IMG/VR virus record: IMGVR_UViG_2541047680_000004 | Source of the DNA: a virus | Lineage: Duplodnaviria; Heunggongvirae; Uroviricota; Caudoviricetes | Direction: 5' to 3' (one strand) | Length of the DNA: 64,000 bases | In this document: positions 45,930 through 54,100 of the stretch, in pieces | Layout: every line of letters starts with the position of its first letter | Position numbering within the stretch: position 1 is the first letter of the stretch | Made by a program: the position numbers and the translations under genes | Notes under the pieces: generated by a model | Told to the model about the DNA's origin: nothing | The model's database searches: none | The model's input: only the letters and a program-made list of their open reading frames with translations

Positions 45930-46289
45930 TCAACCTTTCTTCATTAACTCGCGTTTAATTTCATCGGTACGCATCGTGACATCGGCAGCAGTGATCGCCT
46001 CGTTCAGCTTCACGATGTCCTCGATTTCCTGCGGTGTCTTCTCCGCAAGATGGAAAATAGCAGCACGAATCACATCAGAGCGGGTGAATTTCTCGAAGCG
46101 AGGGATGAACTTCATCATCTCCAGCAGTTCGAAGTATTCGTCTTCCAGTGACATTGTGCGGCTTTTAATTTTCTCTTTGCCACGAGTCGGGCGTCCCTGT
46201 GGTCTGACTGGTTGGCGCAAAGGAGTTGTGTTCTTAGCCGGTGCATCAGGCTCTTTGCGCTTTGCTAGGTCACCCATTTTCATGGACAT
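45930..46289 (-). CDS. small partition-associated DNA-binding protein (ParB/ParG-like candidate)
   Basis: 119-aa basic protein translationally coupled (ATGA-type overlap at 46289) to the ParA-like gene; arrangement typical of type Ib partition loci. Confidence 0.45.
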   Translation of the reverse strand: MSMKMGDLAKRKEPDAPAKNTTPLRQPVRPQGRPTRGKEKIKSRTMSLEDEYFELLEMMKFIPRFEKFTRSDVIRAAIFHLAEKTPQEIEDIVKLNEAITAADVTMRTDEIKRELMKKG

Positions 46290-46957
46290 TATTCTTCTTC
46301 CTCCAGACTCAACAGATAATCTACAAATTCTTCAAACTCGGCTTCCGCCTTTTTGTCGCGCTCGCTACCGGTCATTTCAAAGATAGAACGACCAGACTCT
46401 TCCGCATCATCATAGACGTTGCGGTTATATAGATTGACTGGCGCAGACTCGATGCCAAACGTCTCAACAATCTCTTTAGCCGCCAGAATGCGAGACACTT
46501 GTGATGGCAAAGCCGGGCACTGGTTCATGACCGCGCGGACCTTCACTTTATCGTTTACATTACGAACATTGTCGATAATAGGATCGATGTCACGCAGAGA
46601 TTTCAAATCACGACGCTTAGGACGAAGCGGGATAATGATAACGTCGGCCATCAGCATCGCTTGTCGCTGAATTTCGGAGTCAAAGCCACCAGCATCTACC
46701 ACTACATACTCAGCTCTACCCTGAAGCGATTTTAGGTGCTTAATGATGTCATCCTGAACGTATGCAAAAGGAATCAGCTCAAGGTCTTCGTTCTGTCGAC
46801 GGTCTTCACACCAGCTCGTTGTCGTGCGCTGAATATCTATATCGGTGATATAAACCTTCTTCTTCTTTTTGACTTTCAGGCAAACGGCAATTTGCTGGGC
46901 TACGGTGGATTTGCCTGGCCCGCCCTTTGTGCCGCCAACCACAAAGATCTTGGTCAT
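46289..46957 (-). CDS. parA: ParA/Soj-family partition ATPase
   Basis: Deviant Walker A KIFVVGGTKGGPGKST at N-terminus; 222 aa (small ParA class). Confidence 0.8.
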   Translation of the reverse strand: MTKIFVVGGTKGGPGKSTVAQQIAVCLKVKKKKKVYITDIDIQRTTTSWCEDRRQNEDLELIPFAYVQDDIIKHLKSLQGRAEYVVVDAGGFDSEIQRQAMLMADVIIIPLRPKRRDLKSLRDIDPIIDNVRNVNDKVKVRAVMNQCPALPSQVSRILAAKEIVETFGIESAPVNLYNRNVYDDAEESGRSIFEMTGSERDKKAEAEFEEFVDYLLSLEEEE

Positions 46958-48492: not shown

Positions 48493-48729
48493 TCATCGAC
48501 TCAGTTCAGGTGCCCCCCACTCACACAGCCTTTCACCTATCGTATTGTGGATAAGCAACTGTCGCTCCGTTTCCTCAGTCATAAAATCCTCTCTACTCAC
48601 ATAGATAGGATTTGCAGCATCGCAGAATAGCACGCCTGGAGCCTGCGTCTTAATCACGCACCCATTTATCAAACAGCTCGCGATGAACACCAGAGGCATC
48701 TTTTTGCCGCACTTCATTAACCGTTTCAT
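48493..48729 (-). CDS. o-spanin-like outer-membrane lipoprotein (Rz1-like), overlapping the i-spanin gene
   Basis: Internal start gives MKRLMKCGKKMPLVFIASCLINGC with lipobox; begins inside the 3' end of the upstream Rz-like ORF in another frame. Confidence 0.45.
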   Translation of the reverse strand: MKRLMKCGKKMPLVFIASCLINGCVIKTQAPGVLFCDAANPIYVSREDFMTEETERQLLIHNTIGERLCEWGAPELSR

Positions 48730-48901
48730 TTTTGACATCCACTGTGCTTTGAAGTCGTTTTCTGTCTTCCTGTTTTGCCTTCTCTTCCATTGCTCGTCGC
48801 GCCGCATTCCCGCCCATCGTGTAAGCGCCGACCAGAACGAAAAGAACGGCAGCCAGCGTAATCAAAGCAACTTTTAGCTTTGTCATCAGGCTGCCTAGCA
48901 T
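48650..48901 (-). CDS. i-spanin-like protein (Rz-like)
   Basis: N-terminal TM helix then charged helical periplasmic region; directly downstream of the putative endolysin. Confidence 0.4.
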   Translation of the reverse strand: MLGSLMTKLKVALITLAAVLFVLVGAYTMGGNAARRAMEEKAKQEDRKRLQSTVDVKNETVNEVRQKDASGVHRELFDKWVRD

Positions 48902-48902
48902 A

Positions 48903-49622
48903 TTAGACCATCCCTTTCTGGTGTTTTCTTACCTGCGACCAGGCAATGAATCCTGCCACAACAATAGTGGCAATACCGAAGATGATGCGTACTGTATCCC
49001 CGCTAGAGATATGACCTTGTGCTTTATCCATAGCAGCGGAAACCTGTGGCATAACATCGGCCAGCTGTGCCAGACCAATACCTGCTGTAACAGTTGCGCC
49101 TGCGGTTTCTTTAGTTACAGGAACAGCCTTCACGGTTTTCACCGGCTTAACGACGCCAGCTCGACGCAGACCTTCCTCAATAACTTCTGCCGCATACCAG
49201 GTGTTCAGCGTTTTTAGCGGACCTCGCCCATTCTCATGGCGAATGATTGCCTCAACCAAAGGTCGAAGGATGTCGTAATCATGCAGATCGATGATCATGT
49301 CTGCGGTTACACCAACGGCTTTAGACACCTCATTAATGTAGGCGTCAGTGTTGTTTTCATTCGGCGGTGCCCAACGTTCAATAACTTCACGAATGGTATC
49401 GATACTTGAGCCGTCTTTTGCGCGACGTTTGTCGTGGTAGGTAATTAGAGTCACCGCCAGCGCACGAATCCCCCAAACAGGGTCTTTAAACGTGCAAAAG
49501 CGCGGTTCGTCTGGATTCGCAACCAGACCTTGCCACGGTGATCCTTTATCAAGATTACCGGGGTTATTATTACGAATGCCTCTCGGAGTCTTCATCCTTG
49601 ATCTCCTGTTATTGCAGTCCAT
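48903..49622 (-). CDS. putative lysis protein / peptidoglycan hydrolase with C-terminal membrane anchor
   Basis: Position between holin-like and spanin-like genes; conserved N-terminal GIRNNNPGNL motif; C-terminal hydrophobic helix; catalytic class not established. Confidence 0.3.
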   Translation of the reverse strand: MDCNNRRSRMKTPRGIRNNNPGNLDKGSPWQGLVANPDEPRFCTFKDPVWGIRALAVTLITYHDKRRAKDGSSIDTIREVIERWAPPNENNTDAYINEVSKAVGVTADMIIDLHDYDILRPLVEAIIRHENGRGPLKTLNTWYAAEVIEEGLRRAGVVKPVKTVKAVPVTKETAGATVTAGIGLAQLADVMPQVSAAMDKAQGHISSGDTVRIIFGIATIVVAGFIAWSQVRKHQKGMV

Positions 49623-49944
49623 TTTTTACGCCATACGCGGCTAACCCCAAAAGCAGTGCAGTAATAATGAACGACGTTATTTTAGAAACAATGCCGCCAA
49701 AGAACCCACTGGAGATGGAATCTAACCGGTTAAGGAGTTTGTCCAGATTGGAGTGTTGAATACTATGTTGCGCCGGGGTCATATCACCAAAGTAGGTTTT
49801 CAGCTGATCATTGACCTCTTGGCCAATTTCTTCACGTAGCTCTTTACCTAATTTACCAACAACCTCCCGAGCAACGATCGCGGCAATACGCTCAACTTGC
49901 TCTGTTGTAACGCCCGCCATCTCGTTCGACATATTTTCCTCCAT
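49609..49944 (-). CDS. holin-like small membrane protein
   Basis: 111-aa protein with C-terminal TM segment, first gene of the putative lysis cassette. Confidence 0.35.
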   Translation of the reverse strand: MEENMSNEMAGVTTEQVERIAAIVAREVVGKLGKELREEIGQEVNDQLKTYFGDMTPAQHSIQHSNLDKLLNRLDSISSGFFGGIVSKITSFIITALLLGLAAYGVKNGLQ

Positions 49945-50013
49945 GAAAAGTCAAATCGGGATGGCGGATTTATATCACATTTCACCCTTTTGTTGTAGGT
50001 GTGTGCTTACCTA

Positions 50014-50244
50014 TCATTCAGCATTGCAACGGACTGATGAGAAAGCACCTACTCCAACCCATCGCCAGTTATAGATGCTACCCGCTTTGTATAAGGTATA
50101 GTCGTTCACTTTTTTAACAGCATATATGGGTATGACTGTCTCCTGTCCACCAATGATAGCCTCACCATAACATATAGGTGTCGGCAATTTCTGGCAGCCA
50201 GTAAGAGAGAGAACAACAGCTATTGTTAGAAATAATCTTTTCAT
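50014..50244 (-). CDS. small lipoprotein (Llp-like superinfection-exclusion candidate)
   Basis: 76-aa precursor with lipobox LTGC; sits immediately downstream of the tail-fibre genes, as phage T5 llp sits beside its receptor-binding gene. Confidence 0.45.
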   Translation of the reverse strand: MKRLFLTIAVVLSLTGCQKLPTPICYGEAIIGGQETVIPIYAVKKVNDYTLYKAGSIYNWRWVGVGAFSSVRCNAE

Positions 50245-50254
50245 CGTTTACTCA

Positions 50255-50863
50255 TCAGTTATACAGATTTCTATTTATTACCGGTACTCTGCCATTTACA
50301 CTAAAACTATGGCCGCCATTAAGTTGGTTTACGAATATAGAGCTAACAGTATTTCCATATGCCGCATATCCATAAACCATTGTCATGGCCCCGCCCGGTA
50401 CTGGAACCGCGAACACATTTGCATATGTTGGGATTATCGCTGGCGGGTAATCAAAAACATGCCCTCCAGAACTGTTCCACTCCGTATTATTAAGAAAGGT
50501 AAATGAAAGTGGGATATTTGCCGTATTATAGATCTCCTCTCCTCGCGCATTGAAAAAACTCATGCCCCAAGTTTCTTTTTTGGCTATACCTTTCGAAAAT
50601 ACGTATATCGTGGCACTAGAGTCGCTACCCTGACCTCCGAAACTGTAAATCACCTGGTTGTTACGCACTATTCTGTTGGCTATTAATGAAACAGCTTTCG
50701 AATAGGCAACAAAAATCATCGGTGAACGATCTGGAGATATTTGGGTGTTAAACTCTGTCCCGCCGGACAAAGAAACAACCTGCTTTCTCTGAAAAACGAT
50801 AGGAGACAAAGAAGGAGACATCCAGACCTTCCCGTCAGATCGATATATCTTGCTTCCGTACAT
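50255..50863 (-). CDS. tail-fibre-associated hypothetical protein
   Basis: 202-aa Gly/Ser/Asn-rich ORF coupled (TAATG) to the upstream 84-aa ORF, downstream of the L-shaped fibre gene. Confidence 0.4.
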   Translation of the reverse strand: MYGSKIYRSDGKVWMSPSLSPIVFQRKQVVSLSGGTEFNTQISPDRSPMIFVAYSKAVSLIANRIVRNNQVIYSFGGQGSDSSATIYVFSKGIAKKETWGMSFFNARGEEIYNTANIPLSFTFLNNTEWNSSGGHVFDYPPAIIPTYANVFAVPVPGGAMTMVYGYAAYGNTVSSIFVNQLNGGHSFSVNGRVPVINRNLYN

Positions 50864-51117
50864 TATTTTTGAAAAACCAATATGTTTAAATTACCACTAG
50901 CTCCAGACCACGAAATGGTATTTCCAGAAACCGTAAGACTTGTGTATTTTCCATTGGTTACGTCCATTATGTAATAGTCGATTCCCAATCCCGCCTCAAC
51001 CTCATATGTTCTACTTCCTGAACCAGAGGGAGTAAAATAATCGAGGTAATAAACAGGGGCCAACGCATCGACCATCTCCTGTCTTGATGGCGACCAAACC
51101 TGTGCACCATAGCTCAT
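50863..51117 (-). CDS. hypothetical protein
   Basis: 84-aa ORF between the fibre gene and the 50255..50863 gene. Confidence 0.35.
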   Translation of the reverse strand: MSYGAQVWSPSRQEMVDALAPVYYLDYFTPSGSGSRTYEVEAGLGIDYYIMDVTNGKYTSLTVSGNTISWSGASGNLNILVFQK

Positions 51118-51177
51118 AAATATATCCTTATACTTTTAAGCAGGGGCTGGTTTAGTTCCAGCCCCGATTGAAGTTGT

Positions 51178-54100
51178 TTATTCTTTAGGTGAATTTAACT
51201 TCGTTTCAAGCTCCTCAACCCTTTTGGTCAATTGCTGAATATGATGAATGAGTGGTACAACCAAACGCTCATACATCACTCCTTCAGCGACCATACCATT
51301 TGAGGAAATATCTCCTGGAGAATCATTATTTGTTGGTTCACGCCAATGGACATATTGCGGGGCAATCTCACCAACCTCTTCAGCAATAAGGCCGTAATAC
51401 CCCCAATCCTTTCGGTCACCTCGACAAATTGAACGATACCAAACAGGTCTTAATGACAAAAGTTCATCAGCATATCGATCTTGTAATGTTTCAATATCCT
51501 TTTTATAGCGCCTTGAAGATGTTGAACGCCAAACTGTATTGATACCTGGGTTTGGATCAATGTACATATTGGCACCGCTAGTAGTTGTGCCAATATCCCA
51601 TATAGCAAACCCTCCACTACCGCCTGATTTGACAACCAGTGTTTCAGCAATAATATCCAGGTTGCCACTATAGCCTGTCAGTGATGATCTGCTTGCATAG
51701 GAACTTAGAAGGTTTGTTACCTCTGTTTTCGTATAAGCATTAAGGTTAGCCGCAGTCAAAGTAATATCGGCAGAGCCATCAAACGCCACACCAGCAATTT
51801 TCCTTGCTGTCTGCAATTTTGTGGCTGTTGCGGCATTACCAGTAGTATTCTGATTACCGGTTGTATTCACACCAGGGATTGAATCCTTAGCGGTATATAC
51901 CTGCGCCCACGCTGACCATGCCGCATCAGTGGTATCTCTTCTGGAGCGAATGAAAACCGGCGCATGTGCACCGCTCGTACCACTCCAGCCAATAAGCAAC
52001 TCGCCCTCACCAGCAGCACTCGCACCTTTCATGTGCAATACGTTGCCATACGTGGTCGGGTAGCTATTGTTGTACGCCTCGTACATTTGAATGCCAGCAG
52101 TACCTTGAGTAGAACCGCTTAAAGCCGTAACTCGACCACGAGAAACCAATGTATTAATATTGATATCACCTGAACCATCAAACTTAACACCATTGATGTT
52201 TCTCGCTGTTTGCAACTTCGTAGCTGTTGAAGCATTGCCATTCAAGCTACCATTTACGCCACCAGTAACATTTAGTCCATTACCAATAGACACAACACCG
52301 CTGCTATTATTAATTATAATCGGTCGCAAACTGTTCCATGAACCTAACGTATCTCCTGATGCTGTTAGCATGAAATATGTGCTGCCGCCGTCATTACGGA
52401 TAAAGAACCCGTAGTTACCGTAAGCAATGCGGAAACCATTTGCATATTTTGAAACGATCTCACCAGAAGACGTCAACCCTCCAGATAATGTGCCACCTGA
52501 AAGCGGTAATGCTCCTACATCAGAAGCTGTTGGTTTGTTTCTAGTGTTATAAGAACGACGCCAGCCTGGCGCATAATCACTCCCATTGTACACATAAATA
52601 AATTCCGCATTATTAACACCACCATGACCTGATGTTGTTGCCGTTGTAACACGAATAGTGTAGTGGCTTGTTGCCTTATTACTAAACACCTCAATCACGG
52701 AACCAGATAGATCGATCCTACCGCAACCAGTGTCGTCTATATAATTATTGTTGGCGTAAGTCCATGAGCACCGTGCGATCCAATGTTTGTTTGTAAATGC
52801 CCCCTGATTGTTTAGCCAAGTTATAAATTGAGCAGTCGTAAATGCCGTTCCGTTACCACTATTTAACCATCCAGCGGCAGCGGTTGGTGCGTTTATATCA
52901 GCCGGCTGAGGCATAAATCCAGTCGTGTAAACCTGCTCCCAACCACTTTCAAAACCATAGCCATCTCTTGAGGAACGGTAGAACAGACCACCATTTTTAT
53001 AGTGAGCTTTAATTTGAAGCGTACGGCAACTACCTACACCGGTATAAAAGTTGGCAAGAATATAACTGGCGCCTGTTCTAGTTACATTGTAAGCACCAGA
53101 TTCAGCATTCCACGGCACGCCACCATCAGCATCCGCATATGACCCTGTTGCCCTTCTTGCGAAAGCGGCAACATGCGCAGCGGTTAAAGTGATATCAGTA
53201 GAACCATCAAATGGAACACCGGATATTTTTCTTGCAGTCTGAAGTTTTGTAGCAGTTGCAGCATTACCAGTGGTGTTCTGATTACCCGTAGTGTTTACAC
53301 CTGGAAGGTTGATATTTGCAGAACCGTCGAAACCAACTCCACCGATAGATCTTGCCGTCTGCAATTTCGTTGCTGTACTTGCATTACCATTTAATGTTCC
53401 GGTGATCCCACCAGTAACAGACAACGGACCTGAAACTGTTCCTCCGGTTGTTGGCAGTGCTCCAATATCTAACGGCGTCGGTTTCTGATGTGTGCTATAC
53501 ATCGTATAAACAACACCATCGGTAACGCTGGAAGGCTTACTCGCTGAATATGTTGGCGATGTATAAACAGAAACTGACGCATTTGCAGTACAATCCCAAT
53601 GGATATTTACACTCGTCGCATAATTGCCAATTTCAACGTAAATATCATATGTATCGCCGGATGTGTTGATCCAGGCGAAATTCGTTAATCCGACAGCTGT
53701 ACGCTTCCACAAAGCACCTGTAATCCCTTTGGGGTTTCCATTGCCTGCTCGTAGAACCAGTTCTGAAATGCCTGCCTGATGTGGGGAGCCGACGTTGTAA
53801 CCAGCGCCACCAATCAATGCGATGTAAACGATGGAACTCGCTTGTGGCATTGTAACAGTAGCCAGTTTGAACCACCCGGCCCCGCCAGAGAAAGACATCG
53901 TTATTGAATTTAAAGTACCAATATCTTTCGGCGTTAATGTGATATCCGCAGTCAGTGCTTTCCCGTTAATTTTTCGGTTAGATGGCACCCTGCTGTTCGC
54001 ATTGTCATTGACTACTTTAACTGCTTTTGGCGTTGCGGCCAGCGATTCACTGGTGCTGTCGACAGCACTGCTAAGTTTCACAACACCTTTAGTTGTAAGG

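Follow-up and report, generated by a model that had tools for sequence, protein, structure and literature searches.

A Cor-family exclusion lipoprotein encoded by an E. coli SSU5-like phage-plasmid, with FhuA as its probable target

A small lipoprotein gene that stands between the tail-fibre genes and the lysis genes of a tailed phage raises two connected questions: does its product close the cell to further infection, and which outer-membrane receptor would it block? We considered both for a gene on a 64,000-nucleotide stretch of viral DNA (the window), which is an SSU5-like phage-plasmid of E. coli. Its interval 49900..51200 is 99.7% identical to pECOH89 (NC_023916) and to pAVS0225-A, and the E. 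coli matches to this interval were on plasmids in 208 of 208 cases. A ParA-type partition ATPase is encoded about 1.5 kb past the lysis cassette (46289..46957, minus strand) and is consistent with maintenance of the phage as a plasmid. The gene is already known, named and annotated, because the identical protein is annotated as cor in public E. coli plasmid records; RefSeq names the locus ‘cor: phage exclusion lipoprotein Cor’ (WP_001308877.1), with a translation identical to the window protein, and the gene alone adds nothing new. Among 5,426 complete E. coli genomes, 68 carry this allele at 97% nucleotide identity or more; in each of them it sits on a plasmid, with a size of about 95-156 kb and most often near 110 kb, and no chromosomal copy occurs. 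The best overall explanation, which we consider probable, is that the gene encodes a Cor-family exclusion lipoprotein of the phage-plasmid that blocks FhuA.

The coding sequence begins with an ATG at 50244 and ends with a TGA at 50016..50014, as taken from the list of open reading frames and from the sequence. It is on the minus strand, which the sequence-only reading had left unstated. The 76-residue product is MKRLFLTIAVVLSLTGC directly followed by QKLPTPICYGEAIIGGQETVIPIYAVKKVNDYTLYKAGSIYNWRWVGVGAFSSVRCNAE. Its N-terminus consists of a basic n-region (MKR) and then a hydrophobic h-region, with a Kyte-Doolittle 11-residue maximum of 2.84 at residue 4, and the Pfam model LPAM_1 scores 17.3 bits against residues 1-18, slightly below its cut-off of 20. 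The mature protein would have 60 residues, a mass of about 6.6 kDa and a pI of 8.5, with Cys25 and Cys73 as its two additional cysteines. Under the Lol sorting rule, a lipoprotein whose +2 residue is not Asp goes to the outer membrane; since this residue is Gln in Cor, outer-membrane sorting is expected from the sequence. The ATG of cor is 10 nt past the TGA of the preceding 202-aa gene (…TGATGAGTAAACGATG) and is served by a weak Shine-Dalgarno sequence, GAG only, which fits co-translation of cor with that gene. A promoter scan found none in front of cor and fewer promoter-like sites than in shuffled sequence, and scanning for promoters and terminators gave no convincing candidate between cor and either the upstream tail genes or the downstream lysis genes. 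The features of the locus are collected in the table.

Table. Coordinates of cor, its signals and the neighbouring genes in the window
Feature	Position	Strand	Evidence or remark
J-like tip protein, 1576 aa	55568..60298	-	
Side fibre, 1432 aa	51178..55476	-	T4 gp34 trimerisation domain; C-terminal S74 intramolecular chaperone domain
84-aa companion gene, first in cassette (N15 gp22 / T1 ST32 family)	50863..51117	-	phrog_557, E 1.3e-24
202-aa companion gene, second in cassette (N15 gp23 / T1 ST31 family)	50255..50863	-	phrog_425, E 5.5e-49
cor coding sequence	50014..50244	-	76-aa lipoprotein precursor; list of open reading frames and family matches
Cor signal peptide, residues 1-16 (MKRLFLTIAVVLSLTG)	50197..50244	-	LPAM_1 match, hydrophobic core; presumed removal by signal peptidase II
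Cor lipobox L14-T15-G16-C17	50194..50205	-	read codon by codon
Cor Cys17, predicted acylated first residue of the mature protein	50194..50196	-	
Mature Cor, 60 aa, small beta-rich domain	50017..50196	-	
Cor Cys25	50170..50172	-	probable disulfide partner of Cys73
Cor Cys73	50026..50028	-	probable disulfide partner of Cys25
Rz/Rz1 frames	48650..48901 and within 48493..48807		phrog_1026 and phrog_1275; lipobox IASC in Rz1 frame

The product almost certainly belongs to the Cor superinfection-exclusion family. Over residues 1-75 it matches phrog_1119, ‘Cor superinfection exclusion protein’, with an E-value of 2.2e-30, and it scores 80.7 bits (E 5.7e-23) against the NCBIfam equivalog NF047972, ‘phage exclusion lipoprotein Cor’, thereby passing the curated cut-off of 31 bits. 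Members of this family are precursors of about 75-80 residues with a type II signal peptide and a lipobox cysteine, they carry two cysteines in the mature part as well as GG and AG motifs, and their genes lie past those of the tail tip, accompanied by gp22-like and gp23-like genes; the window protein and its locus have every one of these properties. A tblastn search found cor homologues in 193 phage records, nearly all of them labelled Cor or superinfection exclusion. By the same method the window protein is 59% identical to SSU5_025, 58% to the Cor of an Stx phage, about 47% to Cor of the HK-series lambdoid phages, 42% to N15 gene 24, and 27-34% to proteins of Drexlerviridae and Dhillonvirus. 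When the window protein is aligned with Cor of SSU5, phi367, N15 and T1, C17, C25, C73, GG32-33 and AG54-55 are invariant. A single-sequence search of a large protein collection returned three fragments only, and a search with the alignment as query yielded 78 Cor sequences; among these 78, G55 is invariant and C17, C25, C73, G32, G33 and A54 are conserved at 90% or more. The sequence-only reading had described a 76-residue lipoprotein precursor with an LTGC lipobox and two cysteines in its mature part, a candidate for Llp-like exclusion. The precursor and its signals can be read in the sequence and agree with both family matches, the two cysteines are those conserved across the homologues, and the matches to phrog_1119 and NF047972 support the candidacy, exclusion itself being a role that family membership suggests.

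Compared with the characterised Cor proteins of phi80, N15, HK022, mEp167 and T1, the window protein shares the family by profile score, a length of 75-78 residues, the lipobox and the two conserved cysteines, and it is likewise the product of the last gene of a gp22-like, gp23-like and cor cassette located past the tail tip and fibre genes. The differences lie in identity, which is only 28-47%, and in context. Unlike the phages of those proteins, the carrier is an SSU5-like phage-plasmid of roughly 110 kb; J and the cassette are separated by a 1432-aa side-fibre gene, and directly past the cassette come the lysis genes. In T1, cor (ST30) is on the strand opposite to its cassette, whereas the window gene is co-directional with its neighbours. 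The equivalent locus is found in Salmonella phage SSU5, where SSU5_025, ‘putative superinfection exclusion protein Cor-like’, is preceded by SSU5_023 and SSU5_024 and followed by a holin gene. SSU5_025 is the closest relative of the window protein in a phage record, yet at 57-59% identity it is clearly a different allele, and SSU5 has an additional fibre adhesin gene, SSU5_022, that was not seen in the window.

The same sequence-only reading had likened the gene to T5 llp, in product as well as in genomic setting. The likeness holds for the predicted fold and probably for ancestry, but not for gene organisation. T5 Llp (lytic conversion lipoprotein; PDB 8A60, 7QJF) is about 15-29% identical to the window Cor, with no significant direct sequence match: phmmer with the window protein against PDB sequences gave nothing relevant and no Llp, and a profile of five Cor sequences found Llp (8a60_B) at an E-value of 0.15 only, mainly through the signal peptide. 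More sensitive comparison of the Cor alignment with Llp by hhalign gave 80% probability and an E-value of 1.3e-5 over 73 columns, with both mature cysteines aligned, and Llp itself falls in the Cor PHROG phrog_1119 (E 1.1e-19), so that Cor and Llp probably share a common ancestor. In structural searches, Foldseek against the PDB did not retrieve Llp; against BFVD it returned a Dhillonvirus Cor first (E 2e-5) and then lipoproteins of T5-like phages. The predicted Cor fold is Llp-like, with a small beta domain, an intramolecular disulfide and FhuA-bound Llp as its best match. Previous studies have found that Llp is about 20% identical to Cor proteins, disulfide included (PMC9586334), that a modelled T1-like Cor can be superposed on Llp at a TM-score of 0.69 (PMC13164509), and have proposed Llp and Cor as one family (bioRxiv 10.64898/2026.03.26.714494). 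What separates the two is the organisation of their genes. T5 llp, an early gene, has an annotated promoter to itself and diverges from the gene of the receptor-binding protein pb5 (oad), whereas cor is read in the direction of the late tail and lysis genes, right behind the 202-aa gene, and has no pb5 homologue for company. Strictly, the protein should be called Cor, not Llp.

In the order of transcription on the minus strand, the locus reads J-like tip, side fibre, 84-aa gene, 202-aa gene, cor, holin-like gene, endolysin and Rz/Rz1. The placement of the lipoprotein gene right after the fibre genes, as noticed at the outset, is accurate once it is added that two small genes intervene. The stop codon of the 84-aa gene overlaps the start of the 202-aa gene (TAATG). 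BLASTP similarity to N15 is weak yet significant for both (84-aa protein and gp22, E 3e-5; 202-aa protein and gp23, E 4e-5), and phrog_557, phrog_425 and phrog_1119 also occur in this order in N15 (gp22, gp23 and gene 24) and in T1 (ST32, ST31 and ST30). RefSeq and the SSU5 record give the 202-aa gene as 188 aa (the difference being 50821..50863, minus strand). With the longer start at 50863, the alignment with N15 gp23 begins at residue 2 and that with phrog_425 at position 3; together with the TAATG overlap, this makes it probable that the annotated start lies 14 codons too far downstream. PHROG names the two companion families ‘outer membrane protein’ (phrog_557) and ‘membrane associated protein’ (phrog_425). 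Neither companion protein has a signal peptide or a transmembrane-grade segment (Kyte-Doolittle 19-residue maxima of 0.54 and 1.24), so the inherited ‘membrane’ names look wrong. A receptor-binding role in the virion is at least as plausible, and by analogy with other phages the two proteins may be receptor-binding parts of the tail tip; the 202-aa protein in particular is a possible receptor-binding component. Just past the stop codon of the side fibre, ahead of the 84-aa gene, there is a G+C-rich hairpin, GGGGCTGG-AACTAAA-CCAGCCCC (51143..51165, minus strand), which lacks a T run and for that reason was not reported by the terminator scan. At this edge of the cassette the hairpin could act as an attenuator or affect RNA stability.

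An extended cor cassette past the tail-fibre cluster has been described in T1, HK022, N15, ES18 and phi80, all of them FhuA-dependent, and in the BASEL collection the full cassette is present in ten phages, all FhuA users (PMC13164509). Cor-like genes without both partners accompany other phages, and one that lacks the phrog_557 partner only reportedly uses BtuB (PMC13164509). In small siphophages, the genes past gpJ have been treated as receptor-binding loci that are encoded with their cognate exclusion proteins (PMC8594841), and one pair of this kind, in which receptor-binding protein and exclusion lipoprotein share LptD as target, has a solved structure (PMC12685063). These Rtp45-type exclusion lipoproteins of LptD-targeting small siphophages follow a like logic, being encoded with the receptor-binding locus past gpJ (PMC12685063, PMC8594841); they differ in their receptor, LptDE, and in a mechanism of steric loop displacement, and no similarity between them and the window Cor was detected. 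Outside SSU5-like elements, the closest Cor (58%) is that of the Stx podophage phi367 (Oslovirus; L004 5986..6213). There, cor comes after a tail-fibre adhesin gene, and the phrog_557/phrog_425 pair is located about 3 kb further, beside lom (L004 9454..10355). The three cassette genes are separable, since this pair stands at such a distance from cor.

The cor cassette is accessory in the SSU5-like lineage. It is present in the window and in SSU5 (SSU5_023 to SSU5_025). In Cyrano, which is without it, the fibre gene is followed directly by the holin gene, and in PhiR41_1 two unrelated small ORFs occupy its position. The intervals compared were 50014..51177 of the window, 7934..8135 of L007 and 10111..10683 of L008. 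Homology between the window and Cyrano restarts immediately past the cor stop codon, the cassette genes have a G+C content of 41.6-42.4% against 45.7-49.3% in their neighbours, and the cor allele occurs in about one third (66-68 of 206) of the E. coli genomes that have the flanking sequence. The J tip does not co-vary with the cassette. Over its last 200 residues, the J protein of the window is 99.5% identical to that of Cyrano, 89.5% to that of SSU5, 86% to that of PhiR41_1 and 31-36% to those of N15 and T1. The receptor could not be deduced from the C-terminal 170 residues of J, which are not diagnostic because they match more than 2,000 phage records from many different hosts at about 35-50% identity. 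Two readings fit this lack of co-variation: the companion proteins, not J, could provide FhuA recognition, or cor could be retained to exclude other phages, whatever the own receptor of the SSU5-like phage. At 1576 aa, the J-like tip is unusually long in comparison with the 1061 aa of N15, an excess due to a long coiled-coil repeat run of the pattern ‘DISAAI..EQEARA..ALA.QI.QLQ.KV’ at roughly residues 1080-1400. Roughly residues 150-450 of the side fibre form a long low-complexity stretch rich in Ala and Ser; the distal part of this protein is unlike the Cyrano fibre, and the counterpart of its gene in pAVS0225-A is flagged as an incomplete pseudogene.

Exclusion of FhuA-dependent phages together with impaired FhuA functions is known for the Cor proteins of HK022, N15, phi80 and mEp167; those of HK022, N15 and phi80 inactivate FhuA, and lambdoid Cor is active in lysogens (PMC3594210). 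The earlier suggestion that the sequence of the lipoprotein might hint at the receptor is borne out to the extent that the characterised Cor proteins act on FhuA and that the full cassette is reported to track FhuA use (PMC13164509). We judge FhuA to be the likely target of the window Cor. Several observations count against it: the identity to FhuA-validated Cor proteins is only 42-47%, the closest relative outside SSU5-like elements (58%) belongs to an Stx podophage for which FhuA dependence is not established, and the C-terminal 200 residues of J are nearly the same in the cassette-free Cyrano and highly similar in PhiR41_1, likewise without the cassette. Family membership alone does not fix the target, since some phages that use BtuB have Cor and Llp-like relatives too (PMC13164509).

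We propose that the Cor precursor is exported by Sec, lipidated at Cys17 by Lgt, LspA and Lnt with cleavage by signal peptidase II, and sorted by the Lol pathway to the periplasmic leaflet of the outer membrane. The Cys25-Cys73 disulfide would staple the 60-residue beta-rich domain. Export, lipidation, sorting and disulfide formation are suggested by features of the sequence together with established lipoprotein biology. The domain would then bind the periplasmic face of the TonB-dependent transporter FhuA, and this binding would force the extracellular loops of FhuA into a state that phage receptor-binding proteins cannot use, as solved for T5 Llp (PMC9586334). By analogy with Llp we lean towards such a periplasmic allosteric mechanism; an AlphaFold3 model docks a T1-like Cor on the periplasmic face of FhuA with an ipTM of 0.84 (PMC13164509), and the molecular mechanism of Cor itself has been described as unresolved (bioRxiv 10.64898/2026.03.26.714494). 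Cells that carry the element, and the debris of lysed cells, would stop adsorbing the own phage as well as other FhuA-dependent phages, whereby the progeny would be protected, at the cost of less ferrichrome uptake (PMC3594210). The mobile cassette of the 84-aa gene, the 202-aa gene and cor would in this scheme probably supply both FhuA recognition and the cognate receptor block.

An exclusion lipoprotein of the Cor/Llp family might instead act on a different outer-membrane protein; BtuB, some other TonB-dependent transporter and the binding partner of the SSU5-type J tip are candidates. Cor-like proteins do turn up alongside BtuB use (PMC13164509), identity between the SSU5-type Cor clade and FhuA-validated Cor proteins reaches only 42-47%, the J tip is alike with and without the cassette, and the only receptor reported for SSU5 is the LPS core, which it is described as binding through the fibre protein gp22 (PMC12312913). 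We nevertheless regard a target other than FhuA as rather unlikely, given that the full cassette with phrog_557 and phrog_425 is reported only in FhuA users and that in the BtuB-linked cases either the phrog_557 partner or the whole pair is missing (PMC13164509); in addition, the window Cor is nearer to the FhuA-validated lambdoid Cor proteins (42-47%) than to the Cor-like proteins of Drexlerviridae and Dhillonvirus (27-34%). It is also conceivable that Cor works through several outer-membrane proteins and not as a one-to-one plug of FhuA, as proposed for mEp167 Cor (Arguijo-Hernandez et al.), in which case exclusion would depend on further outer-membrane proteins; the published view of the Cor mechanism (bioRxiv 10.64898/2026.03.26.714494) leaves room for this idea. 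The best match of the predicted fold to FhuA-bound Llp and the placement of T1-like Cor on FhuA in the published model speak for a specific interaction, and we consider the broader action improbable.

The position of the gene invites yet another explanation, in which the lipoprotein serves lysis, as an outer-membrane spanin subunit or as a regulator of lysis, given that the gene comes just ahead of those for holin, endolysin and Rz. Indeed, cor lies on the shared strand 81 nt upstream of the likely holin start, and no terminator was found between them. This lysis role is highly improbable: the window has a separate Rz/Rz1 pair, the cor product has strong Cor matches and no spanin-family match, and Cyrano keeps an equivalent lysis cassette without cor. 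The spanin reading was rejected on account of the separate pair and of the Cyrano cassette. As to the lysis cassette itself (48493..49932, minus strand), it comprises a holin gene, an endolysin gene with a C-terminal hydrophobic segment, Rz and an embedded Rz1. The holin-like gene starts at 49944 in the list of open reading frames (111 aa), and a perfect GGAGG is placed 6 nt before a second ATG at 49932 (49932..49944, minus strand); the shorter form agrees with the 107-aa call of RefSeq and with the match to phrog_5093 (residues 5-111). That the frame is a chance ORF or a decaying remnant without function, as its shortness (76 aa) and its weak GAG Shine-Dalgarno might suggest, is scarcely credible, considering family E-values of 1e-23 to 1e-30, its intactness in the 68 complete E. 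coli genomes that carry it at 97% nucleotide identity or more, and the conservation of all key residues; a non-functional ORF was rejected on the grounds of this conservation. The reading that we prefer remains a Cor-family exclusion lipoprotein directed at FhuA.

SSU5-like phage-plasmids of E. coli are frequent in clinical isolates. It is possible, though we hold the idea only tentatively and consider it doubtful, that the 84-aa gene, the 202-aa gene and cor form a self-contained, horizontally mobile module that combines a receptor adaptor with a receptor block. If this were true, the J tip would stay as it is and the soluble companion proteins, docked on it, would redirect the SSU5-like phage-plasmid to FhuA, while Cor would shut FhuA in the carriers; relatives that lack the cassette but have a virtually identical J tip, Cyrano for instance, would enter the cell by a different route. 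A plasmid-borne inhibitor of FhuA would then be present in about 1% of complete E. coli genomes and would alter ferrichrome uptake as well as susceptibility to colicin M, albomycin and phage.

Since the gene itself has been named before, the residual value of our analysis lies in the prediction of FhuA as the receptor and in the pair of elements with and without the cassette. The window and Cyrano constitute a natural cassette-plus and cassette-minus pair on a near-identical J tip and offer a clean genetic system for the role of the companion genes in receptor binding. The prediction that can be tested is that the E. coli SSU5-like phage-plasmid probably uses FhuA as its terminal receptor. Carriers of the element are probably resistant to FhuA-dependent phages, including T1, T5 and phi80, and to colicin M, which bears on the choice of therapeutic phages.
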